DNA from: Longivirga aurantiaca
Lineage (GTDB): Bacteria > Actinomycetota > Actinomycetes > S36-B12 > CAIYMF01
Reading direction: 5' to 3'
DNA length: 32,000 nucleotides
Assembly: GCF_042660085.1 (NCBI RefSeq)
Contig: NZ_JBHSTI010000003.1
Location: 11,962 to 43,961, forward strand
Shown here piece after piece: positions 2,514 to 17,261 of the stretch. The position numbers and the translations under genes are program-made. Under the pieces are notes generated by a model that ran no database searches, was not told the origin of the DNA, and saw only the letters and a list, made by a program, of their open reading frames with translations. Every line of letters begins with the position of its first letter. Within the stretch, counting starts at the first letter, position 1.

Positions 2514-3233
2514 CTAGGCAGACGGCACGAAGGCGACGTACACCGAGTTGGTCGCCGCACGCTCCTGCAGCGGGTTGGGGAACTCGACGACGTCGCAGCG
2601 CACGTCGACGAACGCCGTGCGCAGCACCGCGAGGTAGTCGTCGTCGGGCGGGTCGTTCGACCACAGCGTGAAGACGCCGCCGGGCCGCAGCCGCGACGCC
2701 AGCACCCGCACGCCGTCCGCCGTGTAGAACGGCGCGTGGCTCGGGTGCAGCAGGTGCCGCGGCGAGTGGTCGATGTCGACGACGATCGCGTCGTACCGGC
2801 GTACGGGGTCCCCGGCGGAGTAGCCGCCGGATGCCGTGAGCGCGAAGAAGTCGCCGTGCAGCAGGGTGCAGCGCGGGTCGGACGCCGCGGACACGCTCAC
2901 CGGCACGAGCCCGCGCTGGTGCCAGTCGATCACCGGCGCGAGCGCGTCGACCACGACCAGTGACGCCACGCGCGGGTCGTCGAGCACTGTCTGCGCGGTG
3001 TAGCCGAGGCCGAGGCCGCCCACCACCACGTCGAGCGGCCGGTCGGGCGCCGCCGCGAGGGCGAGGCGAGCCACCTCGACCTCGGCGACGGTGAACACGC
3101 TCGACATGAGGTACTCGTCGCCGAGCTTCACCTCGTAGATGTCGTCGCCGCCGGACGGGTTGATGCGCCGCCACAGGCTGATGTCGCCCATCGGCGTGGG
3201 CACCAGGTCGAGCACCTCGAACCGAGCCGCCAC
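2514..3233 (-). CDS. Spermidine synthase-like class I SAM-dependent methyltransferase
   Basis: The translation ..FEVLDLVPTPMGDISLWRR..VVVGGLGLGYTAQTVL..IVVDIDHSP..RPGGVFTLWSN has the spermidine-synthase-like fold pattern. The start is placed at the GTG (VAARFEVLD); the ATG at 3191 is an alternative. The ORF-track 5' extension to 3593 is Arg/Ala-rich and overlaps the divergent gene. Confidence 0.72.
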   Translation of the reverse strand: MAARFEVLDLVPTPMGDISLWRRINPSGGDDIYEVKLGDEYLMSSVFTVAEVEVARLALAAAPDRPLDVVVGGLGLGYTAQTVLDDPRVASLVVVDALAPVIDWHQRGLVPVSVSAASDPRCTLLHGDFFALTASGGYSAGDPVRRYDAIVVDIDHSPRHLLHPSHAPFYTADGVRVLASRLRPGGVFTLWSNDPPDDDYLAVLRTAFVDVRCDVVEFPNPLQERAATNSVYVAFVPSA

Positions 3234-3465
3234 CGCTCTGCACCCGCCTGCTGGTCGTGCCCTGCCCGCTGCAGCGATCCGCCAGGACGTCCCGGCGCTG
3301 CCACGAGTCAACCGCACCCACGCCCTATCCACGAGTAGCCGCCCGAGTCCTCGGTCCTGGGGCGCCACACCGAGGACTGCGGCGGTTGCTCGGGGGCTCT
3401 CGCGGGGAACAATGCGCGCACGCCCGTGCGTTGACCAGGGTCCGCCGACGAAAGGACCGCAGCCC

Positions 3466-4053
3466 GTGCCGGCAGCCACCACCACAGCGCCCACCTTCGA
3501 CGAGCAGGCAGCCCTCCTGCGCAGCGTCGGCGTGGGCGCCGACCTCGAGGCCCTCCGTCCGTACGCCGACAACGCAGCGGCGACCGACCCCACCCACCTG
3601 CCGTTCGTCCTGGTCGCCGGCGGCCTCGACCTCGACGCCGCGATGGCTCACGTGATCGCGAAGGGCAAGCCCGGGCGGGTCGACATGACCCCGCTGCGGC
3701 CGCACGACTTCGCGCCGATCGAGGGCACCGAGCCGCCTGCCTCGCCGTACCTCCTGCTCGACGTCGATCTCGGTGCGCGGTTCCGCAACGCGACGCCGGA
3801 GGCCGCGCTGATCGCGCTGCGTGCGGAGGGCCGTACCCCGCTGACGATCGACGAGGGAGTGAGCATGCTGCTGCAGGTGCCCGATGCGCTGCACGCGCGC
3901 ACGGCGTACAGCCTGCTCGCGAGCCGCCGGGCCGACCAGCGGGTGCCCGCGCTCTGGATGTCGTACGGCGCCCCCCGGCTCGGCTGGTGCTGGGACCGCA
4001 ACCCCCACACCTGGCTCGGCTCCGCGTCTGCCGCCGCCCGCATCACCGTCTGA
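3466..4053 (+). CDS. Conserved hypothetical protein (about 195 aa)
   Basis: High GC3 in this frame. A GTG at 3466 is preceded by AAAGGA 9 nt upstream. The translation (..FDEQAALLRSVGVGADLEALRPYADNAA..RVPALWMSYGAPRLGWCWDRNPHTWLGSAS) looks like a real globular protein. I do not recognise a function. Confidence 0.6.
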   Translation: MPAATTTAPTFDEQAALLRSVGVGADLEALRPYADNAAATDPTHLPFVLVAGGLDLDAAMAHVIAKGKPGRVDMTPLRPHDFAPIEGTEPPASPYLLLDVDLGARFRNATPEAALIALRAEGRTPLTIDEGVSMLLQVPDALHARTAYSLLASRRADQRVPALWMSYGAPRLGWCWDRNPHTWLGSASAAARITV

Positions 4054-4945: not shown

Positions 4946-6126
4946 GCGACGTCTTCAGCGGGCTCGTCGGGCAGGACAACGCCGTCGCGCTGCTGCGCGC
5001 CGCGGCCGCCGACGCCCCTGCAGCCCGCGCCGGGCAGCACTCCACCGCGATGACGCACGCCTGGCTCATCACCGGCCCTCCCGGGTCGGGCCGCAGCACA
5101 GCCGCGCTCGCCTTCGCCGCGGCGCTCGTCTGCCCGCAGGGCGGCTGCGGCACCTGCCAGGAGTGCACGTCGGTGCGGCACTCCGCGCATGTCGACGTCG
5201 AGCACGTCGTGCCCGAGTCGGTCACCTACGCCGTCGACGAGACGCGCGAGCTCGTACGCCGGTCGAGCATCTCGCCGTCGCGCGCGCCCTGGCACGTGTT
5301 CGTGCTCGAGGACGCCGACCGCCTCAACCCCGAGAGCGCCAACACTCTGCTCAAGTCGATCGAGGAGCCCACGCCGGGCACTGTGTGGATCCTCTGCGCG
5401 CCGAGCACCGAGGACGTGCTCCCCACGATCCGCTCGCGCTGCCGCCACCTCATGCTCGCCACCCCCACCACCGCCGAGGTGGCCGATGCGCTGCAGCGGG
5501 TGCTCGGGGTCGATCCCGCGATGGCGTCGTTCGCCGCCCGCGCCGCGCAGGGCCACATCGGCCGCGCCCGCGCGCTCGCCACCGACGAGAGCGCGCGCCT
5601 GCGCCGGCAGGACGTCCTGCGCATCCCGAGCCAGCTGCGCGACCTCGGCTCGTGCCTCGCGCTCGCCGCCGACCTCGTGGCCACCGTCACCGAGGACGCC
5701 GCCTCGATCTGCGACCCGCTCGACTCCGACGAGATGTCGGCGCTGCGGGCGGCGTACGGCGAGGGCTCGGAAGGACGCGGCATCGGCACCGTCGAGCGCC
5801 GCGCGAAGGGCGCGCTGAAGGCGTTGGAGGACAGGCAGAAGCGGCGCCGGCGCCGGGTCGTGCGCGACCAGCTCGACCGCGCGATCGTCGACCTCATCGC
5901 GTTCTACCGCGACGTGCTCGTCGTGCAGCTCGGGGCGGCGTCGCCGCTCGTGAACGACGAGATGCGCCCGCAGATCGAGCGCCTCGCGGCCGAGTCGTCG
6001 CCCGAGGACACGCTGCACCGCGTCGACGCGCTCGAGCGCACCCGCAACCTGCTCGAGGCCAACGTCGCGCCGCTGCTCGCCTTCGAGTCGCTCACCGTGA
6101 GCCTGCGCGACCCCTCGCTCGTCTGA
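4942..6126 (+). CDS. holB: DNA polymerase III subunit delta'
   Basis: HAWLITGPPGSGRSTAALAFAAAL, the Cys cluster CPQGGCGTCQEC, NTLLKSIEEP and the SRC motif (IRSRCRH). The topA-tmk-holB order is the usual actinobacterial synteny. Confidence 0.9.
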   Translation: MSDVFSGLVGQDNAVALLRAAAADAPAARAGQHSTAMTHAWLITGPPGSGRSTAALAFAAALVCPQGGCGTCQECTSVRHSAHVDVEHVVPESVTYAVDETRELVRRSSISPSRAPWHVFVLEDADRLNPESANTLLKSIEEPTPGTVWILCAPSTEDVLPTIRSRCRHLMLATPTTAEVADALQRVLGVDPAMASFAARAAQGHIGRARALATDESARLRRQDVLRIPSQLRDLGSCLALAADLVATVTEDAASICDPLDSDEMSALRAAYGEGSEGRGIGTVERRAKGALKALEDRQKRRRRRVVRDQLDRAIVDLIAFYRDVLVVQLGAASPLVNDEMRPQIERLAAESSPEDTLHRVDALERTRNLLEANVAPLLAFESLTVSLRDPSLV

Positions 6127-6145
6127 GACCGAGCCTGGTACCTCG

Positions 6146-9100
6146 TCAGACGGTGCGGCGGAACTGCCCGCCGACGTCGAACAGCGCCTGCGTGATCTGC
6201 CCGAGCGAGCACACGCGCACGGCCGACAGCAGGGCCTCGAACAGGTTGCCGCCCGAGACCGCGGCGTCCTGCAGCGCGGCGAGCGCCTCGGGTGCCTCCG
6301 CCTGGTGCCGCTCCTGGAACGCGCGCAGCCGGTCGAGCTGCGACTGCTTCTCGTGCTCGGTCGCACGGGCGAGCTCGAGTCCGTGCGCGGTCTCGCAGTC
6401 GGAGGACGACGCGGGCGCGAGGAACGTGTTGACGCCGATGATCGGCAGCGAGCCGTCGTGCTTGCGGTGCTCGTAGAGCATCGACTCGTCCTGGATCCTG
6501 CCGCGCTGGTAGCCGGTCTCCATCGCGCCGAGCACACCGCCGCGGTCGGAGATGCGCTCGAACTCGGCGAGCACGGCCTCCTCGACGAGGTCGGTGAGCT
6601 GCTCGACGACGTACGAGCCCTGGAGCGGGTTCTCGTTCATCGACAGGCCCCACTCCTTGTCGATGATCATCTGGATGGCGAGCGCGCGGCGCACCGACGA
6701 CTCGCTCGGCGTGGTGACCGCCTCGTCGTACGCGTTGGTGTGCAACGAGTTCGCGTTGTCGTAGAGGGCGCAGAGCGCCTGCAGCGTGGTGCGGATGTCG
6801 TTGAAGTCCATCTCCTGCGCGTGCAGCGAGCGGCCGCTGGTCTGCACGTGGTACTTCAGCTTCTGCGCGCGCTCGTCCGCGCCGTACTTCTCCTTCATCG
6901 CCACGGCCCAGATGCGGCGCGCGACGCGGCCGATCACGGTGTACTCGGCGTCCATGCCGTTGCTGAAGAAGAACGACAGGTTGGGCGCGAAGTCATTCAC
7001 GTCCATGCCGCGCGCGAGGTACGACTCGACGTAGGTGAACCCGTTCGACAGCGTGAACGCGAGCTGGCTGATGGGGTTCGCCCCGGCCTCGGCGATGTGG
7101 TAGCCGCTGATCGAGACCGAGTAGAAGTTGCGGACGTCGTGCTCGATGAACCACTGCTGGATGTCGGCCATCGCGCGCAGCGAGAACTCGGTCGAGAAGA
7201 TGCAGGTGTTCTGGCCCTGGTCCTCCTTGAGGATGTCGGCCTGCACCGTGCCGCGGACGGTCGACACCGTGCGGGCGCGGATCGCGTCGAGCTCGCCGGC
7301 GTCGGGCTCACGGCCCTCGTCGGTGCGGAAGCGCTCGACCTGCTGGTCGATCGCGGCGTTGAAGTACATCGCCAGGATCGTGGGCGCCGGGCCGTTGATG
7401 GTCATCGAGACCGACGTGGTCGGCGAGCAGAGGTCGAACCCTGCGTACAGGTCCTTCATGTCGTCGAGCGTCGCGATCGAGACGCCGGACGTGCCCACCT
7501 TGCCGTAGACGTCGGGCTGCGGCGCGGGGTCGCGGCCGTAGAGCGTGACGGAGTCGAACGCCGTCGACAGGCGCGTGGCCGGCTGACCCTGCGAGAGCAG
7601 GTGGAAGCGCCGGTTGGTGCGTGCGGGGTCGCCCTCGCCGGCGAACATCCGCGCGGGCGCCTCGCCCTCGCGCTTGAACGGGAAGACGCCGGCGGTGAAG
7701 GGGTAGGAGCCGGGCAGGTTCTCCGCGCGAAGGAACCGGAGCAGCGAGCCGTGGTCGTCGTCCGGGGGGAGTGCCACGCGCGGCACGTGGCTGCCCGAGA
7801 GCGTCTCGCGCGTGAGCGGCGTCGTGATCTCCTTGCCGCGCACGACGTACACCTGGTGGTCGCCGGTGTACGACGCCCTCACGGCCGGCCAGCCGTCGAG
7901 CAGCTCTCGGACCGAGGCGGGCATCGACTCGTGGGCAGCGCCGAGCAGACGACTGACGGCAGCGGCTGCGGAGGACTCGCCCTCGGCGGCGAGCAGGTCG
8001 AGCGTGGCCGAGAGCTGCTGCGCCTGGCGGGCGAGGGCTGCGAGCCGCTGGGTCTCCGCGTGGTAGCCGCGGACGGTGCTGGCGATCTCGGCCAGGTAGT
8101 GCTCGCGGCCGCGGGGGAGCACACGGGCGATGTGGGTGGAGAAGCGCGTGGTCACCGGCGCGAGCGTGCCGTCGAACTCGCGCAGGCCCTTCGCGGTGAG
8201 CAGGCTCTTGAGCTCCTGGTAGAGCGCGGTCACGCCGTCGTCGTCGAAACGCGCTGCGCTCGTGCCGAAGACGGGCATGTCCTCCCACGGCGTGCCGAAC
8301 GCCTCGCGGTTGCGCACCATCTGGCGCGCGACGTCGCGACGCGCGTCCTCGGCGCCGCGGCGCTCGAACTTGTTGACCGCGACGACGTCGGCGAAGTCGA
8401 GCATGTCGATCTTCTCGAGCTGCGAGGCGGCGCCGTACTCCGGCGTCATGACGTAGAGGCTCACGTCGGCGTGCGACGAGATGGCGACGTCGCCCTGGCC
8501 GATTCCGGGCGTCTCGACGATCACGAGGTCGTAGCCGGCGGCGCGGCAGGCGGCGACGGCGTCGTCGAGCGACGGCGGGACGACGGTGTTGGCGTCGCGC
8601 GTGGCGAACGAGCGGAAGAAGACGACGTCGGGATCGATCGAGTTCATGCGGATGCGGTCGCCGAGCAGGGCGCCGCCGCCGCGGCGGCGCGTGGGGTCGA
8701 CGGCGAGGACGGCGATACGGAGCTTGTCCTGGCTGTCGCGGCGCAGCCGGCGTACGAGCTCGTCGGTGAGCGACGACTTGCCCGAGCCGCCTGTGCCGGT
8801 GATGCCGAGCACGGGCGCGGGGTGAACCGCGGTGGCGGTGCGCAGCTCGGCCGCGAGCTCGGGCCGGCGTCCGGACTCGAGCACGGTGAGCGCGCGCGCG
8901 AGCGCAGTGACGTCGCCCGTGCGGAGCGCGGTGACGTCGACCTCGCCGCCTGCGAGATCGACGTCGCAGGTGCGGATGAGCTCGTTGATCATTCCGGGCA
9001 GTCCGAGGCGCTGGCCGTCGGCGGGGGAGAAGATGCGCACGCCGACGGCGGCGAGCGCGTCGATCTCCTCGGGCACGATCACGCCGCCACCACCGCCGAA

Positions 9101-13107: not shown

Positions 13108-14733
13108 GTGGTCCTGCCCCACCGTCTGCAGTCCGGAGCCCGCGCAGTGACCTCTCGCCCGAACCGACTGTTCCCGGGCTCGCGCACCCGGCGTGTGCTC
13201 CACGGGTCGGCGGCACTCATATCGGTTGCGCTGCTCGCCGCCTGCACGCAGGCCCCGGACCCCGGCACGTCGGTCACGCCCACCACTACGCCGAGCGGCT
13301 CGTCGTCCGAGTCGCCGTCGTCGGGCGGTGACGGGCTCGCGCAGTTCTACGGCCAGAAGATCGCGTGGAAGGGCTGCGGCGGGTCGTTCCGCTGCGCCGA
13401 TCTCACGGTGCCGCTCGACTACTCCCAGCCCGACGGCGACACCCTCGCCATCGCCCTCATCAAGCTGCCCGCGGCCGACGAGGCCAACCGCATCGGCTCG
13501 CTCGTGCTCAACCCCGGCGGCCCCGGCAGCTCGGGCGTCGACTACGCGCGCGCAGCCCGCGCCGTCGTCGACGAGAAGGTGCGCGACGTCTACGACGTCG
13601 TCGGCTTCGACCCGCGAGGCGTGGGCAGGTCGGACGCCGTGAAGTGCCTGACGGACGCGCAGACCGACGCCTTCATGGCAGCCGACGCGACGCCCGACAC
13701 CCCCGAGGAGGTCGCGCAGCTCGAGAAGGACTCGAAGAAGTTCGCCGACGCCTGCGCGAAGAACTCCTCGAAGCTGCTCGCCCACATCGGCACCGAGAAC
13801 GCCGCCCGCGACATCGACGTGCTGCGCGCGGCGCTCGGCGACAAGCAGCTCAACTGGCTCGGCGCGTCGTACGGCACGCTGCTCGGAGCGACGTACGCCG
13901 GCCTCTTCCCGGACAAGGTCGGCCGGATGGTGCTCGACGGCGCGCTCGACCCGGCGCTGTCGAACAACGAGCTCTTGCACGGCCAGGCCAAGGGCTTCGA
14001 GCTCGCGTTGCAGCACTTCGTCGAGGACTGCGCCAAGCAAGCCGACTGCCCGCTGCCGCGCGACGAGCAGGCCGGCGTCGACCGCATCAAGCAGTTCCTC
14101 GACGACCTCGACGCGAACCCGCTCGCCACCGGCGACCCGAAGCGCCCGCTGACCCAGGCGCTCGCGGCCAACGCGATCCTCGGCTATCTCTACGTGCCGC
14201 CGTTCGACTGGGAGCAGCTGCGCTTCGGCCTGCAGCTCGCCTTCGAGGGCGACGGCTCGGTGCTGCTGTCGATGCTCGACGCGCGCGTGCAGCGGACCGA
14301 GGACGGGAAGTTCGCCTACAACCCCTACTCGTCGTTCCTGTCGATCAGCGCCGTCGACCGGCCGGACCGACCGACGACGGCGGAGTCGGCCGACATGGCC
14401 GCGATGTGGGAGAAGGAGTCGCCGGTCTTCGGCGCTTACCTCGGCTGGGGCACCCTCGTCTTCGGCTACTGGCCGGTCGAGGCGACCGGCACGCCGGGCG
14501 AGATCACGGCGCCCGGCACCGGGCCGATCCTCGTCGTCGGCACCACGTACGACCCGGCCACGCCGTACCCCTGGGCGCAGGCCCTTGCCAAGCAGCTCGA
14601 GGGCGGTGTGCTCCTGACCCGCGTCGGCGACGGGCACACGGCGTACGGCATGGGGTCGCCCTGCATCGACGAGGCGATCGACACCTACCTGGTGACCGGT
14701 GAGCCGCCGGCCGACGGCACCATCTGCCGCTGA
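13108..14733 (+). CDS. Secreted alpha/beta hydrolase, tripeptidyl-aminopeptidase (TAP)-like lipoprotein
   Basis: Lipobox (ISVALLAAC). LVLNPGGPGSSG, the nucleophile motif WLGASYGT, and a TAP-like C-terminal domain (..VVGTTYDPATPY..GDGHTAYG). The exact start is uncertain; in-frame GTGs at 13147 and 13196 are also possible. Confidence 0.85.
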   Translation: MVLPHRLQSGARAVTSRPNRLFPGSRTRRVLHGSAALISVALLAACTQAPDPGTSVTPTTTPSGSSSESPSSGGDGLAQFYGQKIAWKGCGGSFRCADLTVPLDYSQPDGDTLAIALIKLPAADEANRIGSLVLNPGGPGSSGVDYARAARAVVDEKVRDVYDVVGFDPRGVGRSDAVKCLTDAQTDAFMAADATPDTPEEVAQLEKDSKKFADACAKNSSKLLAHIGTENAARDIDVLRAALGDKQLNWLGASYGTLLGATYAGLFPDKVGRMVLDGALDPALSNNELLHGQAKGFELALQHFVEDCAKQADCPLPRDEQAGVDRIKQFLDDLDANPLATGDPKRPLTQALAANAILGYLYVPPFDWEQLRFGLQLAFEGDGSVLLSMLDARVQRTEDGKFAYNPYSSFLSISAVDRPDRPTTAESADMAAMWEKESPVFGAYLGWGTLVFGYWPVEATGTPGEITAPGTGPILVVGTTYDPATPYPWAQALAKQLEGGVLLTRVGDGHTAYGMGSPCIDEAIDTYLVTGEPPADGTICR

Positions 14734-14855
14734 CCTGCGGTTTCGCTCCCGTTCACGGGTGCAGCGGTCGGCCGCGAACGGCGTACGGCCGATTCGGAGG
14801 CATGGCCGGGGGTCGGGTATCGTTCCGACTCGTGCTCGCCGCCTGCGGCGACCAC

Positions 14856-14932
14856 GCCGCCTTAGCTCAGTCGGTCAGAGCGACGCACTCGTAATGCGTA
14901 GGTCATCGGTTCGATTCCGATAGGCGGCTCCA
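14856..14932 (+). tRNA. tRNA-Thr (anticodon CGU), with encoded CCA
   Basis: Manual cloverleaf: acceptor GCCGCCT/AGGCGGC, D arm GCTC-AGTCGGTCA-GAGC, anticodon arm ACGCA-CTCGTAA-TGCGT, variable loop AGGTC, T arm ATCGG-TTCGATT-CCGAT, discriminator T, then CCA. Confidence 0.95.
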
Positions 14933-14933
14933 C

Positions 14934-14966
14934 AGCGCCACCTGCGGTGATACCGCCGGTGGCGCT
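14934..14966. terminator. Strong hairpin between the tRNA-Thr 3' end and the integrase stop
   Basis: A 14-bp stem with one mismatch (AGCGCCACCTGCGG / CCGCCGGTGGCGCT) and loop TGATA, followed by TTTC. It fills the entire gap between the tRNA and the int stop at 14968. Confidence 0.5.
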
Positions 14967-14967
14967 T

Positions 14968-16110
14968 TCAATTGGGCTGGCTTTCCGGGTCACTCGTCCC
15001 CATCTCGTCCCCGATCATCGTGTCGAGCCTGCGAACGGCGCTGTTGAGGTGGTCGGCGGACAGCAGGTGCCCGTAGGTGTCGTGGGTGGTCCGGCTGGAC
15101 TGGTGGCCGAGCAGCGACTGGACGCTCTTGAGGTCGGCGCCGGCGGCGATGAATAGCGACGCCGCCGTGTGGCGCAGGTCGTGGGGCCGGTGACCGACAG
15201 CGGTCGTCCAACCGACGGCGCGCCTCCAGTTCGACTCGCTGATCAAGCCGCCGCCGGGTGCCGAGAAGAGCGGCTCATTATGGCCCTTGCCTTCCATGCG
15301 GGCGAGCACCAGCGGCACGGCGGCGTTGGCGACGGGGACGCTCCGGCGCCGGCGCCCCTTGGGGTACGGCTTCAGGCTGGCTTTGCCTCCGCCGTGGTCG
15401 TAGATGACGGTCCGGCTCACGTCCAGCGTCATGGTCGTCCCTCCCGTGACGGAGGTGCCGATCATGACGTCGCCGACGCGCAGCCCCGCGACCTCGCCCC
15501 AGCGAAGGCCGGTGAGGCCGAGCACCAGCGTGATGTCTGCCTGCGGGCTGCGTTCAAGCTGCTCCTGGTACAGCGCGCGGAGGGCTGTGAGCGTGAGGGG
15601 TCGTGCCCGCTGAGCCTGTTCATCTCGGCCGCGTCCGGGTGCGCGGCGGACGGTGACGTCGGAGGCGACGTTCTGGGTGATCCGGCCGTCGCGGGTGGCG
15701 AAGCTGAGCAGGGCCTTGAGCGTGGCAAGGACGCGCGTCGCCGTTGCCGGCGACAGCCGCTTGTCGCTGACCAGGGTGCGGGCGAACTCCTCGACGTCGG
15801 TGCGCCGAATGACGCCGATGGGCTTCTTGCCGAGGGTGGGCAGGATGTGGACGGCGAGTGCGCTCTGGTCGCTCTGGAAGGTTCGGCGTTCGACCTGAGG
15901 CTCGCGCACCGGCAGCCACTGCGCGGCGAGCTCGGCGAGCGTCGCCCGGCCCAGGGCGGGATCGACCCAGCCCGAGCTGTCGATGCGGGCGCGCTGCTGC
16001 CGCTCCCAGGCTTCGGCCTGGCGGCGCTGCGCGAAGGTCTGGTCGGCGACGACGCGGCCGCGGACCTTCACGCGGACGCGGTAGCGGCCCGCCTCGGTCT
16101 TGTTGATCAT
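14968..16110 (-). CDS. int: Tyrosine-type site-specific integrase
   Basis: 380 aa. N-terminal arm-type DNA-binding region (GRYRVRVKVRGRVV), the catalytic residues TGLRWGEVAGL (Arg), HDLRHTAAS (HxxR) and DTYGHL (Tyr), and GGAG 8 nt upstream of the ATG. Confidence 0.93.
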   Translation of the reverse strand: MINKTEAGRYRVRVKVRGRVVADQTFAQRRQAEAWERQQRARIDSSGWVDPALGRATLAELAAQWLPVREPQVERRTFQSDQSALAVHILPTLGKKPIGVIRRTDVEEFARTLVSDKRLSPATATRVLATLKALLSFATRDGRITQNVASDVTVRRAPGRGRDEQAQRARPLTLTALRALYQEQLERSPQADITLVLGLTGLRWGEVAGLRVGDVMIGTSVTGGTTMTLDVSRTVIYDHGGGKASLKPYPKGRRRRSVPVANAAVPLVLARMEGKGHNEPLFSAPGGGLISESNWRRAVGWTTAVGHRPHDLRHTAASLFIAAGADLKSVQSLLGHQSSRTTHDTYGHLLSADHLNSAVRRLDTMIGDEMGTSDPESQPN

Positions 16111-16210
16111 GGTGAGACTCCTGGAGCACGGTTTCCTCCGGTATCGCAGCCACCGCCGACAGCGGACAAGCAGTGGGCGCGCCGGCCTGTGGACGACACG
16201 CGGAGATCGC

Positions 16211-16444
16211 TCAGCGCTGGCGGTCGGCGACGCTGGGCGCAGCCTCCGTCAGCACCTCGCCGTCCAGCACCCGCCGAAGGCAGGCGGTGGGGATGCGGAT
16301 GAGCTTGCCCATGCGCACGACCGGGGTGGGCCAGGCGCCGGTGCGGACAAGCTCGTAGGCCAGCCCGCGACCGATGCCCAGGACGCTTGCAGCTGTGGGG
16401 AGGTCGACGAGAGGCGGGAGCTGCGCGAGTTCGATGTGGGTCAT
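16211..16444 (-). CDS. xis: Excisionase-family / MerR-like HTH DNA-binding protein (77 aa)
   Basis: MTHIELAQLPPLVDLPTAASVLGIGRGLAYELVRTGAWPTPVVRMGKLIRIPTACL is the classic excisionase helix-turn-helix pattern. It is on the same strand as int and directly upstream of it. Confidence 0.8.
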   Translation of the reverse strand: MTHIELAQLPPLVDLPTAASVLGIGRGLAYELVRTGAWPTPVVRMGKLIRIPTACLRRVLDGEVLTEAAPSVADRQR

Positions 16445-16534
16445 GGGCGTCTCCTGGCGGGTGGGTGCCACCTGGCAGCGGCAGGTACCACCAGGTGCGC
16501 GTCGAGAGGCCTCGACACGCATCGGCCGCTGCCC

Positions 16535-16746
16535 GAGTCCGTCACCGAGTCCGTCACGGACTCCGTCATCAGTGGACGATGGTGCGTGACTCCGTCACCA
16601 ACTCCGTCACCGACTCCGTCACGACATGGACGGTGGCGCCGGCGCTGTCATGGAGTCCGTCACCGACTCCGTCACGGCGTCAAGGGCGGTGCCGGCGCTG
16701 TCATGGAGTCCGTCACCGACTCCGTCAGTGCGTCCATGGGCTCCCG
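16535..16746. repeat. Four phased 53-bp tandem repeats, each made of three 12-bp GASTCCGTCAC-type units plus a 17-bp spacer
   Basis: Repeat starts are at 16535, 16588, 16641 and 16694. Ten well-conserved 12-mers (for example GAGTCCGTCACC, GACTCCGTCACG) and two degenerate ones (GGCGCTGTCATG) are all in the same orientation. The spacers are related to each other. The 17-nt spacers break any single reading frame. Confidence 0.9.
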
Positions 16747-16898
16747 CACGTTGAGGACCCCGACTCCGGCCGCGGCATCGAGGTCGTTGCCTCGCTGTTT
16801 GATCGACGCATTCGGCTTCGCGTGTTGTCCACAGGTGGGCACGTGACGTTGACGCGGGTTCGTTCGCCATCGGTCACCTTGGCGAACTGGAGGCCACC

Positions 16899-17261
16899 AT
16901 GGACGACGTCGACGATGCGGGAGCCCCCGCGCGGGCGGCGCTGGAGATTGCTTTGGTGGGCCTTCTGGCCGATCTGCGCCGGCACAGGCGCGACCACGTC
17001 GTGTCCCTCGGCGTCGTCGGCGCCACGGGGCGCCTGAGCGCCATCCTGCAGACTCTGAGCACGAGGACGACGGGCCACGGCGTGCGCTCCGGCGGGCCGG
17101 CCGAGCGCTTGGTGTCGGCGCGTGCCGCCGTGGCCTTCCTGGTCGACGACGCCGAAGCCTTGGGGCTGTCAGCCCACCTGCTCCTGCTGCTGGCCCGGGC
17201 GGCGCACGCTCTCTCGGAGGCCGAACGCGTGCTCCTCCCGGGCTCCTGGGAATCAAGCTGA
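16899..17261 (+). CDS. Hypothetical protein (120 aa), orphan ORF of the element remnant
   Basis: GGAGG lies 5 nt upstream of the ATG. GC3 is very high in this frame, and there is no in-frame start upstream (stop at 16800-16802). The Ala/Leu-rich translation has no motif I recognise, so it could still be spurious. Confidence 0.4.
   Translation: MDDVDDAGAPARAALEIALVGLLADLRRHRRDHVVSLGVVGATGRLSAILQTLSTRTTGHGVRSGGPAERLVSARAAVAFLVDDAEALGLSAHLLLLLARAAHALSEAERVLLPGSWESS

Follow-up and report, generated by a model that had tools for sequence, protein, structure and literature searches.

We asked what function a regular array of short direct repeats might serve in Longivirga aurantiaca, where it occupies the gap between an excisionase-like gene (xis) and a small divergent open reading frame (ORF). 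The array lies in a 32-kb stretch of DNA (32,000 nucleotides, referred to here as the window) and was originally predicted to consist of twelve 12-bp units upstream of xis. Plasmid iterons, a centromere, stacked operator sites for a winged-helix protein and an orphaned cis site had all been proposed to explain it.

A two-tier repeat array inside a tRNA-Thr island

The array and its immediate neighbors are the following:

16535..16746, + strand: repeat array, four 53-bp periods (16535, 16588, 16641, 16694) with ten good and two degenerate units
16445..16534, no strand: 90-bp stretch from the array to xis with two inverted repeats (CACCTGG at 16469-16475 with CCAGGTG at 16491-16497; GTCGAG-AGGC-CTCGAC at 16501-16516)
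16211..16444, - strand: xis-like gene, 77 aa, predicted winged helix and proposed array binder (profile matches, AF2 model, fold matches)
16899..17261, + strand: conserved, lineage-restricted 120-aa ORF divergent from xis, predicted four-helix bundle, no HTH, no family match

The four periods, all running in one direction, were found where the original prediction had placed them, as were all twelve unit starts (16535, 16547, 16559; 16588, 16600, 16612; 16641, 16653, 16665; 16694, 16706, 16718; all on the + strand). The count of twelve was on the high side. Ten co-oriented units at 16535-16729 fit GASTCCGTCAC with no or one mismatch and share the core CCGTCAC, whereas the units at 16641 and 16694 (GGCGCTGTCATG) are degenerate and deviate from this motif at four positions. 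Tandem Repeats Finder and a repeat finder recovered both the 12-bp and the 53-bp period. At up to one mismatch, GASTCCGTCAC occurred 16 times in the window compared with 3.7 ± 2.1 times in shuffled sequences; none of 100 shuffles of the window reached 16 matches, and 11 of the 16 fell within 195 bp. The array is real and far beyond what chance would produce. With 53 bp equalling about 5.05 helical turns, the proposed phasing at about five turns also proved accurate.

The distance between the ATG of the xis-like gene (16444) and that of the 120-aa ORF (16899) leaves a gap of 454 bp, in agreement with the roughly 450 bp first estimated. The window has an open + strand frame through the array. 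Relatives, with differences in steps of 12, 41 and 53 bp, do not preserve the frames, and we therefore rejected a coding reading; the array is non-coding in the window, as had been assumed. CRISPR arrays consist of 23-50 bp repeats with unique spacers of similar length and are usually accompanied by cas genes. Here the units are 12 bp long and abut each other, and the ORF and Pfam survey revealed no cas gene, so the earlier dismissal of a CRISPR array was justified. A blastn search of 16100-17300 against phage and plasmid collections gave no match.

Nine array units carry GAGTC or GACTC, exactly as counted before. The pairs closest to the 120-aa gene (16653-16681 and 16706-16734) read GAGTC-N7-GACTC and are also a 17-bp inverted repeat, while the xis-proximal unit pairs in most clades read GACTC/GACTC; these two kinds of pairs may represent two site subtypes. 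GASTC is depleted across the whole window (70 sites compared with 127 ± 11 expected from dinucleotide shuffles), and 9 of the 70 sites sit inside the 200-bp array. This depletion could stem from codon bias or from avoidance of restriction.

To the left of xis, the window holds the integration machinery:

14968..16110, - strand: tyrosine integrase, 380 aa, with Pfam Phage_integrase, Phage_int_M and SAM-like domains
14856..14932, + strand: tRNA-Thr(CGU), whose 3' 46 nt (about 14887-14932) are the att core

The integrase gene is located downstream of xis and is probably co-transcribed with it. The boundaries of the att core derive from two relatives, L072 and L073, which are 99.98% identical over 12.3 kb from tRNA position 32 rightwards and unrelated to the left of it, where L073 carries Fic and Lsr2 genes. 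Because the identity starts at tRNA position 32, the crossover core corresponds to the 3' 46 nt of tRNA-Thr. The array is positioned 1.6 kb from this core, inside the island and not in an att arm. The CCGTCAC unit was absent from the other arm of L073, a putative attP (L073 represents attP or a tandem junction). Given this distance and the absence of units from that arm, the array does not have the position expected of recombination directionality factor sites in attP or attR. The same arm contains TGCTCACAGA twice at 11-bp spacing (3029-3049), a candidate pair of integrase arm-type sites. Elsewhere in L073 (2804-2917), four copies of GAAGTTGTTG in alternating orientation lie upstream of the Fic-domain gene and look like a separate operator. 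No second copy of the tRNA 3' end (attR) was detected in the window, and the far end of the island is therefore not in the window.

The region to the right of the 120-aa gene has the following features:

17300..17569, no strand: conserved non-coding segment holding an inverted unit and the invariant GCTCCTTGGAGCCAGAGGAGT (17528-17548)
17337..17347, - strand: single inverted unit GACTCCGTCAC, invariant in six relatives
17693-18868, + strand: IS110 transposase
19307-19870, + strand: partial second IS110 copy
20639-21577, + strand: Cys/Met PLP-enzyme gene, N-terminally truncated

The conserved segment follows the 120-aa gene and is bordered on its other side, in relatives, by a UPF0158 gene in convergent orientation. 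The block CGTGACGGAGTCG is invariant in alignment A1 while mean column identity is 69%, and indels of 1-2 nt in the segment argue against a coding role. An Rfam scan of 14500-18000 reported the tRNA only, and the covariation term of an RNA consensus fold of 17262-17700 was unfavorable, so that we propose no structured RNA here. L054 also has this segment, to the same side of xis; its orientation with respect to the array is reversed.

Genes in the intact relative L072 are arranged as α/β-hydrolase, DUF3089 and tRNA-Thr, followed by integrase, xis, array and 120-aa gene, and beyond the latter by UPF0158, a small SecDF-P1-like gene, DUF4132, HEAT and Pnkp/Hen1 genes. Homology of the window to L072 stops at 17569 and is followed by the IS110 copies and the truncated gene, which indicates that the L072-type cargo (UPF0158, DUF4132, Pnkp/Hen1) was lost or moved here. 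Within 12 kb of the array in L072/L073, a distance that ends short of the island's far end, we found no Rep, Par, relaxase, TraB/FtsK or T4SS genes. ParA-, ParM- or TubZ-like genes were absent from the window and from 12 kb in the relatives.

Iterons, ParR/TubR-type centromeres and the clt loci of the Streptomyces plasmids pJV1, pSVH1 and pWTY27 do resemble the array in being short co-oriented repeat arrays bound by multimers, and tubC iterons share its 12-bp unit length. Such sites are, however, defined by an adjacent TraB, Rep or Par gene. None of these was found within 12 kb in L072/L073, and there is no AT-rich stretch around the array that could serve as an unwinding region, the lowest GC content of any 100-bp window being 0.62. 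Plasmid iterons and a ParR/RHH- or TubR-type centromere, two likenesses that had been considered at first, are therefore not supported over these 12 kb.

Two further observations concern repeats and islands outside this locus. L109 carries another island type (509-aa integrase, Xis 72% identical) that ends at 1750-1800 in a 51-nt copy of the tRNA-Thr 3' end, and a copy of the conserved segment follows 4.3 kb beyond this copy (6086-6384); this layout suggests tandem accretion of islands at one tRNA. At the left end of the window, a tandem repeat with a 45-bp period and 2.6 copies (1240-1358), rich in AAGAAG/GCC codons, is probably a Lys/Ala-rich coding repeat; just downstream of it lies a tandem repeat with a 40-bp period and 2.2 copies (1447-1533).

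Conservation of the lattice and its linkage to xis

We scanned for the double unit in one genome per species, requiring the exact motif, a search that is blind to variant motifs. Among the 69 loci obtained, two classes stood out. In Myxococcales and assorted Actinobacteria, units spaced by 6, 12 or 18 bp were located inside ORFs and represent coding ESVT/DSVT-type repeats or chance matches. The second class comprised high-GC Actinomycetota MAGs (labelled Nanopelagicales by their depositors) with spacings of 12, 41 and 53 bp like those of the window. L016, L061, L047, L012 and L007 align to the window locus at 75-89% over xis, array and 120-aa ORF, which identifies several loci of the second class as true homologues. 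In two MAGs, seven of eight unit-pair loci adjoin an excisionase-type gene or belong to a known array type; the eighth, L013, is without context.

Parsing ten non-redundant arrays revealed that two 12-bp units and a 29-bp spacer, together 53 bp, make up the recurrent module in relatives, with an optional third unit. The parse of three 12-bp units plus 17 bp, which had been proposed at the outset, thus describes the unit starts in the window correctly but not the recurrent module. Unit-to-unit distances were most often 12 bp (51 times), 53 bp (39), 41 bp (31), 65 bp (22) and 106 bp (22); adjacent units were 12 bp apart in 51 of 52 cases and 13 bp in one. Steps from cluster to cluster measured 53 ± 1 bp in 17 of 33 cases, and nearly all others 53 ± 12 bp. 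The units of one array share 84-89% identity whereas its spacers share only 35-42%, about random at this GC content, with spacer length held at 29 bp. Selection is therefore visible on unit sequence and phasing, not on spacer sequence. Clade L108 has units such as GACTGTCACC and GCGTCCGTCACC, which keep the lattice and CYGTCAC but are devoid of GANTC. The conserved core is thus CYGTCAC and the GANTC part is dispensable, which weakens the GANTC idea of the original prediction and led us to reject a methylation reading. Copy number changes quickly, ranging from 4 to 11 units at 92-100% Xis identity; the window array has one 53-bp period more than that of L072, and its periods 3 and 4 are recent duplicates. 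The array is a conserved, lineage-restricted cis element.

To examine linkage independently of the motif, we also collected loci solely by their homology to Xis, leaving the motif out of the query. Five clades recovered in this way carry the array 90-150 bp upstream of xis:

Window type: Xis identity 92-100%
L108: Xis identity 74%
L007/L096: Xis identity 74%
L099: Xis identity 72%
L047 type: Xis identity 59-63%

In every one of these clades, the array cores lie on the strand opposite to xis; the other strand carries 0-2 cores. All arrays of the window clade have their first unit 91 bp from the xis ATG. L109 (Xis 72%) shows a unit pair at the contig end. Several Xis clades at 64-70% identity were without an array within reach (L088, L110, L111, L093-95).

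The search for a gene that always accompanies the array had been recommended with the original prediction, and it pointed to the xis-type gene, which does so in five clades; the 120-aa gene is optional and absent from L016 and L054. The 120-aa protein has 22 homologues, all at least 52% identical and one of them from Longivirga aurantiaca, and P0001, 96% identical to it, occurs in L072-L079. The locus L074 combines a window-type 120-aa gene (96%) with an L047-type xis and array, a mosaic indicating that the array belongs to the xis module and not to the neighboring ORF. By sequence comparison, the units accompany four unrelated integrases of 380, 393, 466 and 509 aa, which show 26-29% identity to the window integrase, and in L107 and L108 no integrase adjoins the xis gene and its units. 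Divergent Xis homologues (47-52% identity) in L102 and L103 have another direct repeat upstream, GGTGCCGTGGCC in three copies, and L086 and L090 show CCTGTCA variants upstream. The joint change of xis and repeats in these four loci hints, weakly, at co-variation.

Units also occur in other settings. In L006, L085 and L107, unit pairs lie 2.1-2.4 kb from xis in convergent orientation. Each of these loci (3260-3510, 550-900 and 3537-3886, respectively) holds two modules, composed of two direct units, about 50 bp and two inverted units, between genes for 460-aa and 382-aa unknown proteins and downstream of a weak homologue of the 120-aa protein. In L054 and L024, the same units flank excisionase genes of a different family (TIGR01764). 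In L010 (936-1110), L035 (2016-2115) and L089 (about 470-560), unit pairs are in frame (DSVT) within TrwC relaxase genes, namely in the linker between relaxase and helicase, with a period of 75 bp and not 53 bp and a homologous xis directly downstream; in L024, unit pairs lie just upstream of the relaxase gene. The original prediction had regarded a location inside a coding gene in relatives as an argument against a cis site. Unit pairs are indeed coding in the TrwC linker, but this is a different class of element.

Candidate binding proteins and competing explanations

The 77-aa protein matches HTH_17 and TIGR01764 at E=0.001, below cut-offs, and is 43-47% identical to 'excise' genes of Gordonia phages. 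Its AF2 model (pLDDT 83.5, core above 90) shows a winged helix with a short N-terminal helix. The best PDB matches of the model were RdfS (8dgl), P2 Cox (4lhf), Pukovnik Xis (4j2n) and BldC (6ama), with a probability of 1.00 each and E-values of 2e-3 to 6e-2, which is normal for a domain this small (about 55 residues); TraN of Enterococcus, an excisionase-fold T4SS DNA-binding protein, was also among the fold matches. As modeled, the 77-aa protein is a winged-helix protein of the RdfS/Cox/Xis/BldC fold. The notion of an orphaned cis site does not agree with these results, since the adjacent gene encodes a predicted winged-helix fold and the array co-segregates with xis in relatives. Among the explanations proposed initially, stacked winged-helix operator sites fit best. 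The other neighbor is a poor candidate: the 120-aa protein is predicted to be a four-helix bundle (AF2 pLDDT 80.8) with no HTH, a structure search gave no significant fold match and no family matched, so we rejected it as the likely sequence-specific binder.

The stretch between array and xis (16445-16534) is nearly identical in L016 and L061, and other clades also have a CGCGCACCT-like motif upstream of xis. This stretch probably contains the promoter/operator of xis-int. A sigma-70 consensus scan called no promoter there, a result that is uninformative for an actinobacterium with 71% GC.

We tentatively favor a reading in which the neighboring Xis-like protein may use the array at the xis-int promoter as a phased operator or an architectural site. 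One point against binding by this protein is the 12-bp unit spacing, compared with the 10-11 bp usual for the Xis/Cox/Apl/BldC-type family. The same applies to the foreign excisionases flanked by units in L054 and L024, to the array-less Xis clades at 64-70% identity and to the 2.1-2.4 kb that separate units from xis in the L006/L107 type. Moreover, as no unit is present in the putative attP arm of L073, a true excision factor would need a second specificity.

Other binders would be a host nucleoid or regulatory factor of the actinobacterial lineage or the arm-binding domain of an integrase. We consider this improbable, even though units adjoin non-homologous excisionases in L054 and L024 and integrase arm-type sites usually consist of paired direct repeats, as do OmpR/PhoP-type response-regulator sites. 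Integrase arm sites lie within about 200 bp of the core, whereas the array is 1.6 kb away, shows no co-variation with the integrase, is shared by the four dissimilar integrases described above and persists without one in L107 and L108; the other arm of L073 has its own repeat, the TGCTCACAGA pair. We thus rejected the arm-site reading. Against a host factor, unit pairs in the sampled MAGs are found next to int/xis modules and are not scattered, and only two isolated unit copies exist elsewhere in the window. It is very unlikely that the array has no present function and is a fast-evolving minisatellite, possibly descended from the DSVT-coding relaxase-linker repeat and kept uniform by slippage and gene conversion. 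The variable number of units and periods, the recent duplication of periods 3 and 4 in the window and the related coding units in TrwC genes would be in line with such an origin. Spacers, however, have diverged to near-randomness while their length and the unit sequence were kept, lattice and strand orientation persist in clades whose flanks are at most 75% identical, and six relatives show no change in the single inverted unit that lies outside the array. A minisatellite of variable copy number without a conserved neighbor had been named as the outcome that would speak against a functional site; the copy number is variable, but the neighbor xis is conserved.

The units in and near relaxase genes raise the question whether the array is a transfer-related cis site, that is an oriT-accessory or clt-like landing pad marking the island for mobilization. 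Its reader would be a TraB-type translocase, or else an accessory protein of excisionase type that works with the TrwC relaxase of co-resident elements. Unit pairs in the TrwC linker (L010, L035, L089) or upstream of the relaxase (L024) with a homologous xis adjoining, and the TraN fold match, fit this explanation. Furthermore, clt loci in Streptomyces consist of arrayed direct repeats of 7-9 bp to which the translocase binds (PMC3583192), and RdfS is required for conjugation beyond its role in excision. Nevertheless we judge a transfer site unlikely: genes for a relaxase, TraB/FtsK or a T4SS are absent within 12 kb of the array in L072/L073, the units of L010, L035 and L089 are in-frame coding repeats on a 75-bp period and not on the 53-bp lattice, no nic-like hairpin was identified, and the constant offset and orientation of the array relative to xis point to a promoter-linked function. 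A broader variant, which we regard as quite unlikely, is that the 12/53-bp lattice acts as an 'address' common to a community of islands and TrwC-relaxase elements that reside together. A single protein of the Xis family would polymerize on the phased pairs, wrap about 200 bp in a nucleosome-like manner and couple excision control to mobilization, with relaxase-less islands being recognized in trans. Such an address would account for the occurrence of the same units alongside four types of integrase, beside foreign excisionases and within relaxase genes.

A proposed operator and its relation to known systems

If the array is an operator of the Xis-like protein, the predicted course from binding to regulatory outcome would be as follows. 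One 77-aa protomer would occupy each 12-bp unit via the core CYGTCAC, and each pair or triplet would be covered by two or three protomers arranged head-to-tail, the way in which lambda Xis, Apl, Cox, Pukovnik Xis and BldC bind their direct repeats. The recurrence at 53 bp, about five turns, would place the induced bends on one face of the DNA, so that some 160-265 bp, starting 91 bp upstream of the xis ATG, could be wrapped into a higher-order complex. This complex would set the level of xis-int transcription (autoregulation) and would probably influence the divergent 120-aa gene too. A loop might be anchored by the invariant inverted single unit located 600 bp away.

Recombination directionality factors are known to bind co-oriented direct repeats head-to-tail and cooperatively and to bend DNA, and several of them also act at promoters: Apl binds at pR-pL, Cox at promoters and RdfS at that of its own gene, and D29 Gp36 is a repressor of transcription that recognizes GC-rich direct repeats (PMC7498355, PMC11963761, PMC5859096, PMC12266134). 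The published repeat spacing of Xis/Cox/Apl-type proteins is 10-11 bp (PMC7498355). Apl of coliphage 186, with seven direct repeats between pR and pL and five at attP, and P2 Cox with its 'cox boxes' resemble our locus in combining a small winged-helix excision factor with a co-oriented repeat array in the promoter region beside its own gene, and Cox is a fold match of the 77-aa model. Their binding is cooperative, head-to-tail and DNA-bending (PMC7498355). Their sites, however, are 6-9 bp long and 10-11 bp apart in one contiguous run, in contrast to 12-bp units arranged as pairs or triplets every 53 bp, and, unlike with Apl, no matching sites were seen at the putative attP of L073.

BldC of Streptomyces, Pukovnik Xis and Gp36 of L5/D29 belong to the same phylum as our locus, have the same MerR-like/Xis fold and bind direct repeats as head-to-tail multimers of variable number. 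BldC differs in being a chromosomal developmental regulator with AT-rich sites (AATTnnnnC), Gp36 in recognizing GCGGC repeats 15-19 nt apart, and none of the three shows a two-tier 12/53-bp lattice. The best structural match of the 77-aa model, down to the short N-terminal helix, is RdfS of ICEMlSymR7A, which binds its own promoter, autoregulates and forms superhelical filaments. RdfS lacks a recognizable consensus motif, in contrast to the sharp motif found here, and host phylum and element type also differ.

Compared with the direct-repeat operators of this group, the locus has an adjoining small gene that is predicted to encode a winged-helix protein of the Xis/BldC fold, and co-oriented abutting repeats, in pairs or triplets at 12-bp steps on one strand; the spacing is 12 bp instead of about one helical turn (10-11 bp). 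The array would therefore best be filed as an architectural variant of Xis/Cox/BldC-fold direct-repeat operators and not as a full member, because its spacing differs and binding is a prediction. It most likely represents a new layout of a known kind of site and not a new kind of system.

If the 77-aa protein binds the lattice, the locus would be a sharply defined, GC-rich and highly regular case of head-to-tail winged-helix binding, as most characterized members of the fold (RdfS, BldC, Apl) have loose or degenerate sites. The five-turn phasing of the pairs could be used to test how winged-helix proteins build wrapped nucleoprotein complexes. In addition, the lattice would provide a sequence signature to find and sort a family of islands integrated at tRNA genes in little-studied actinobacteria of freshwater, soil and sludge, and it would show how these islands exchange integrase-excisionase modules at a conserved cis site.
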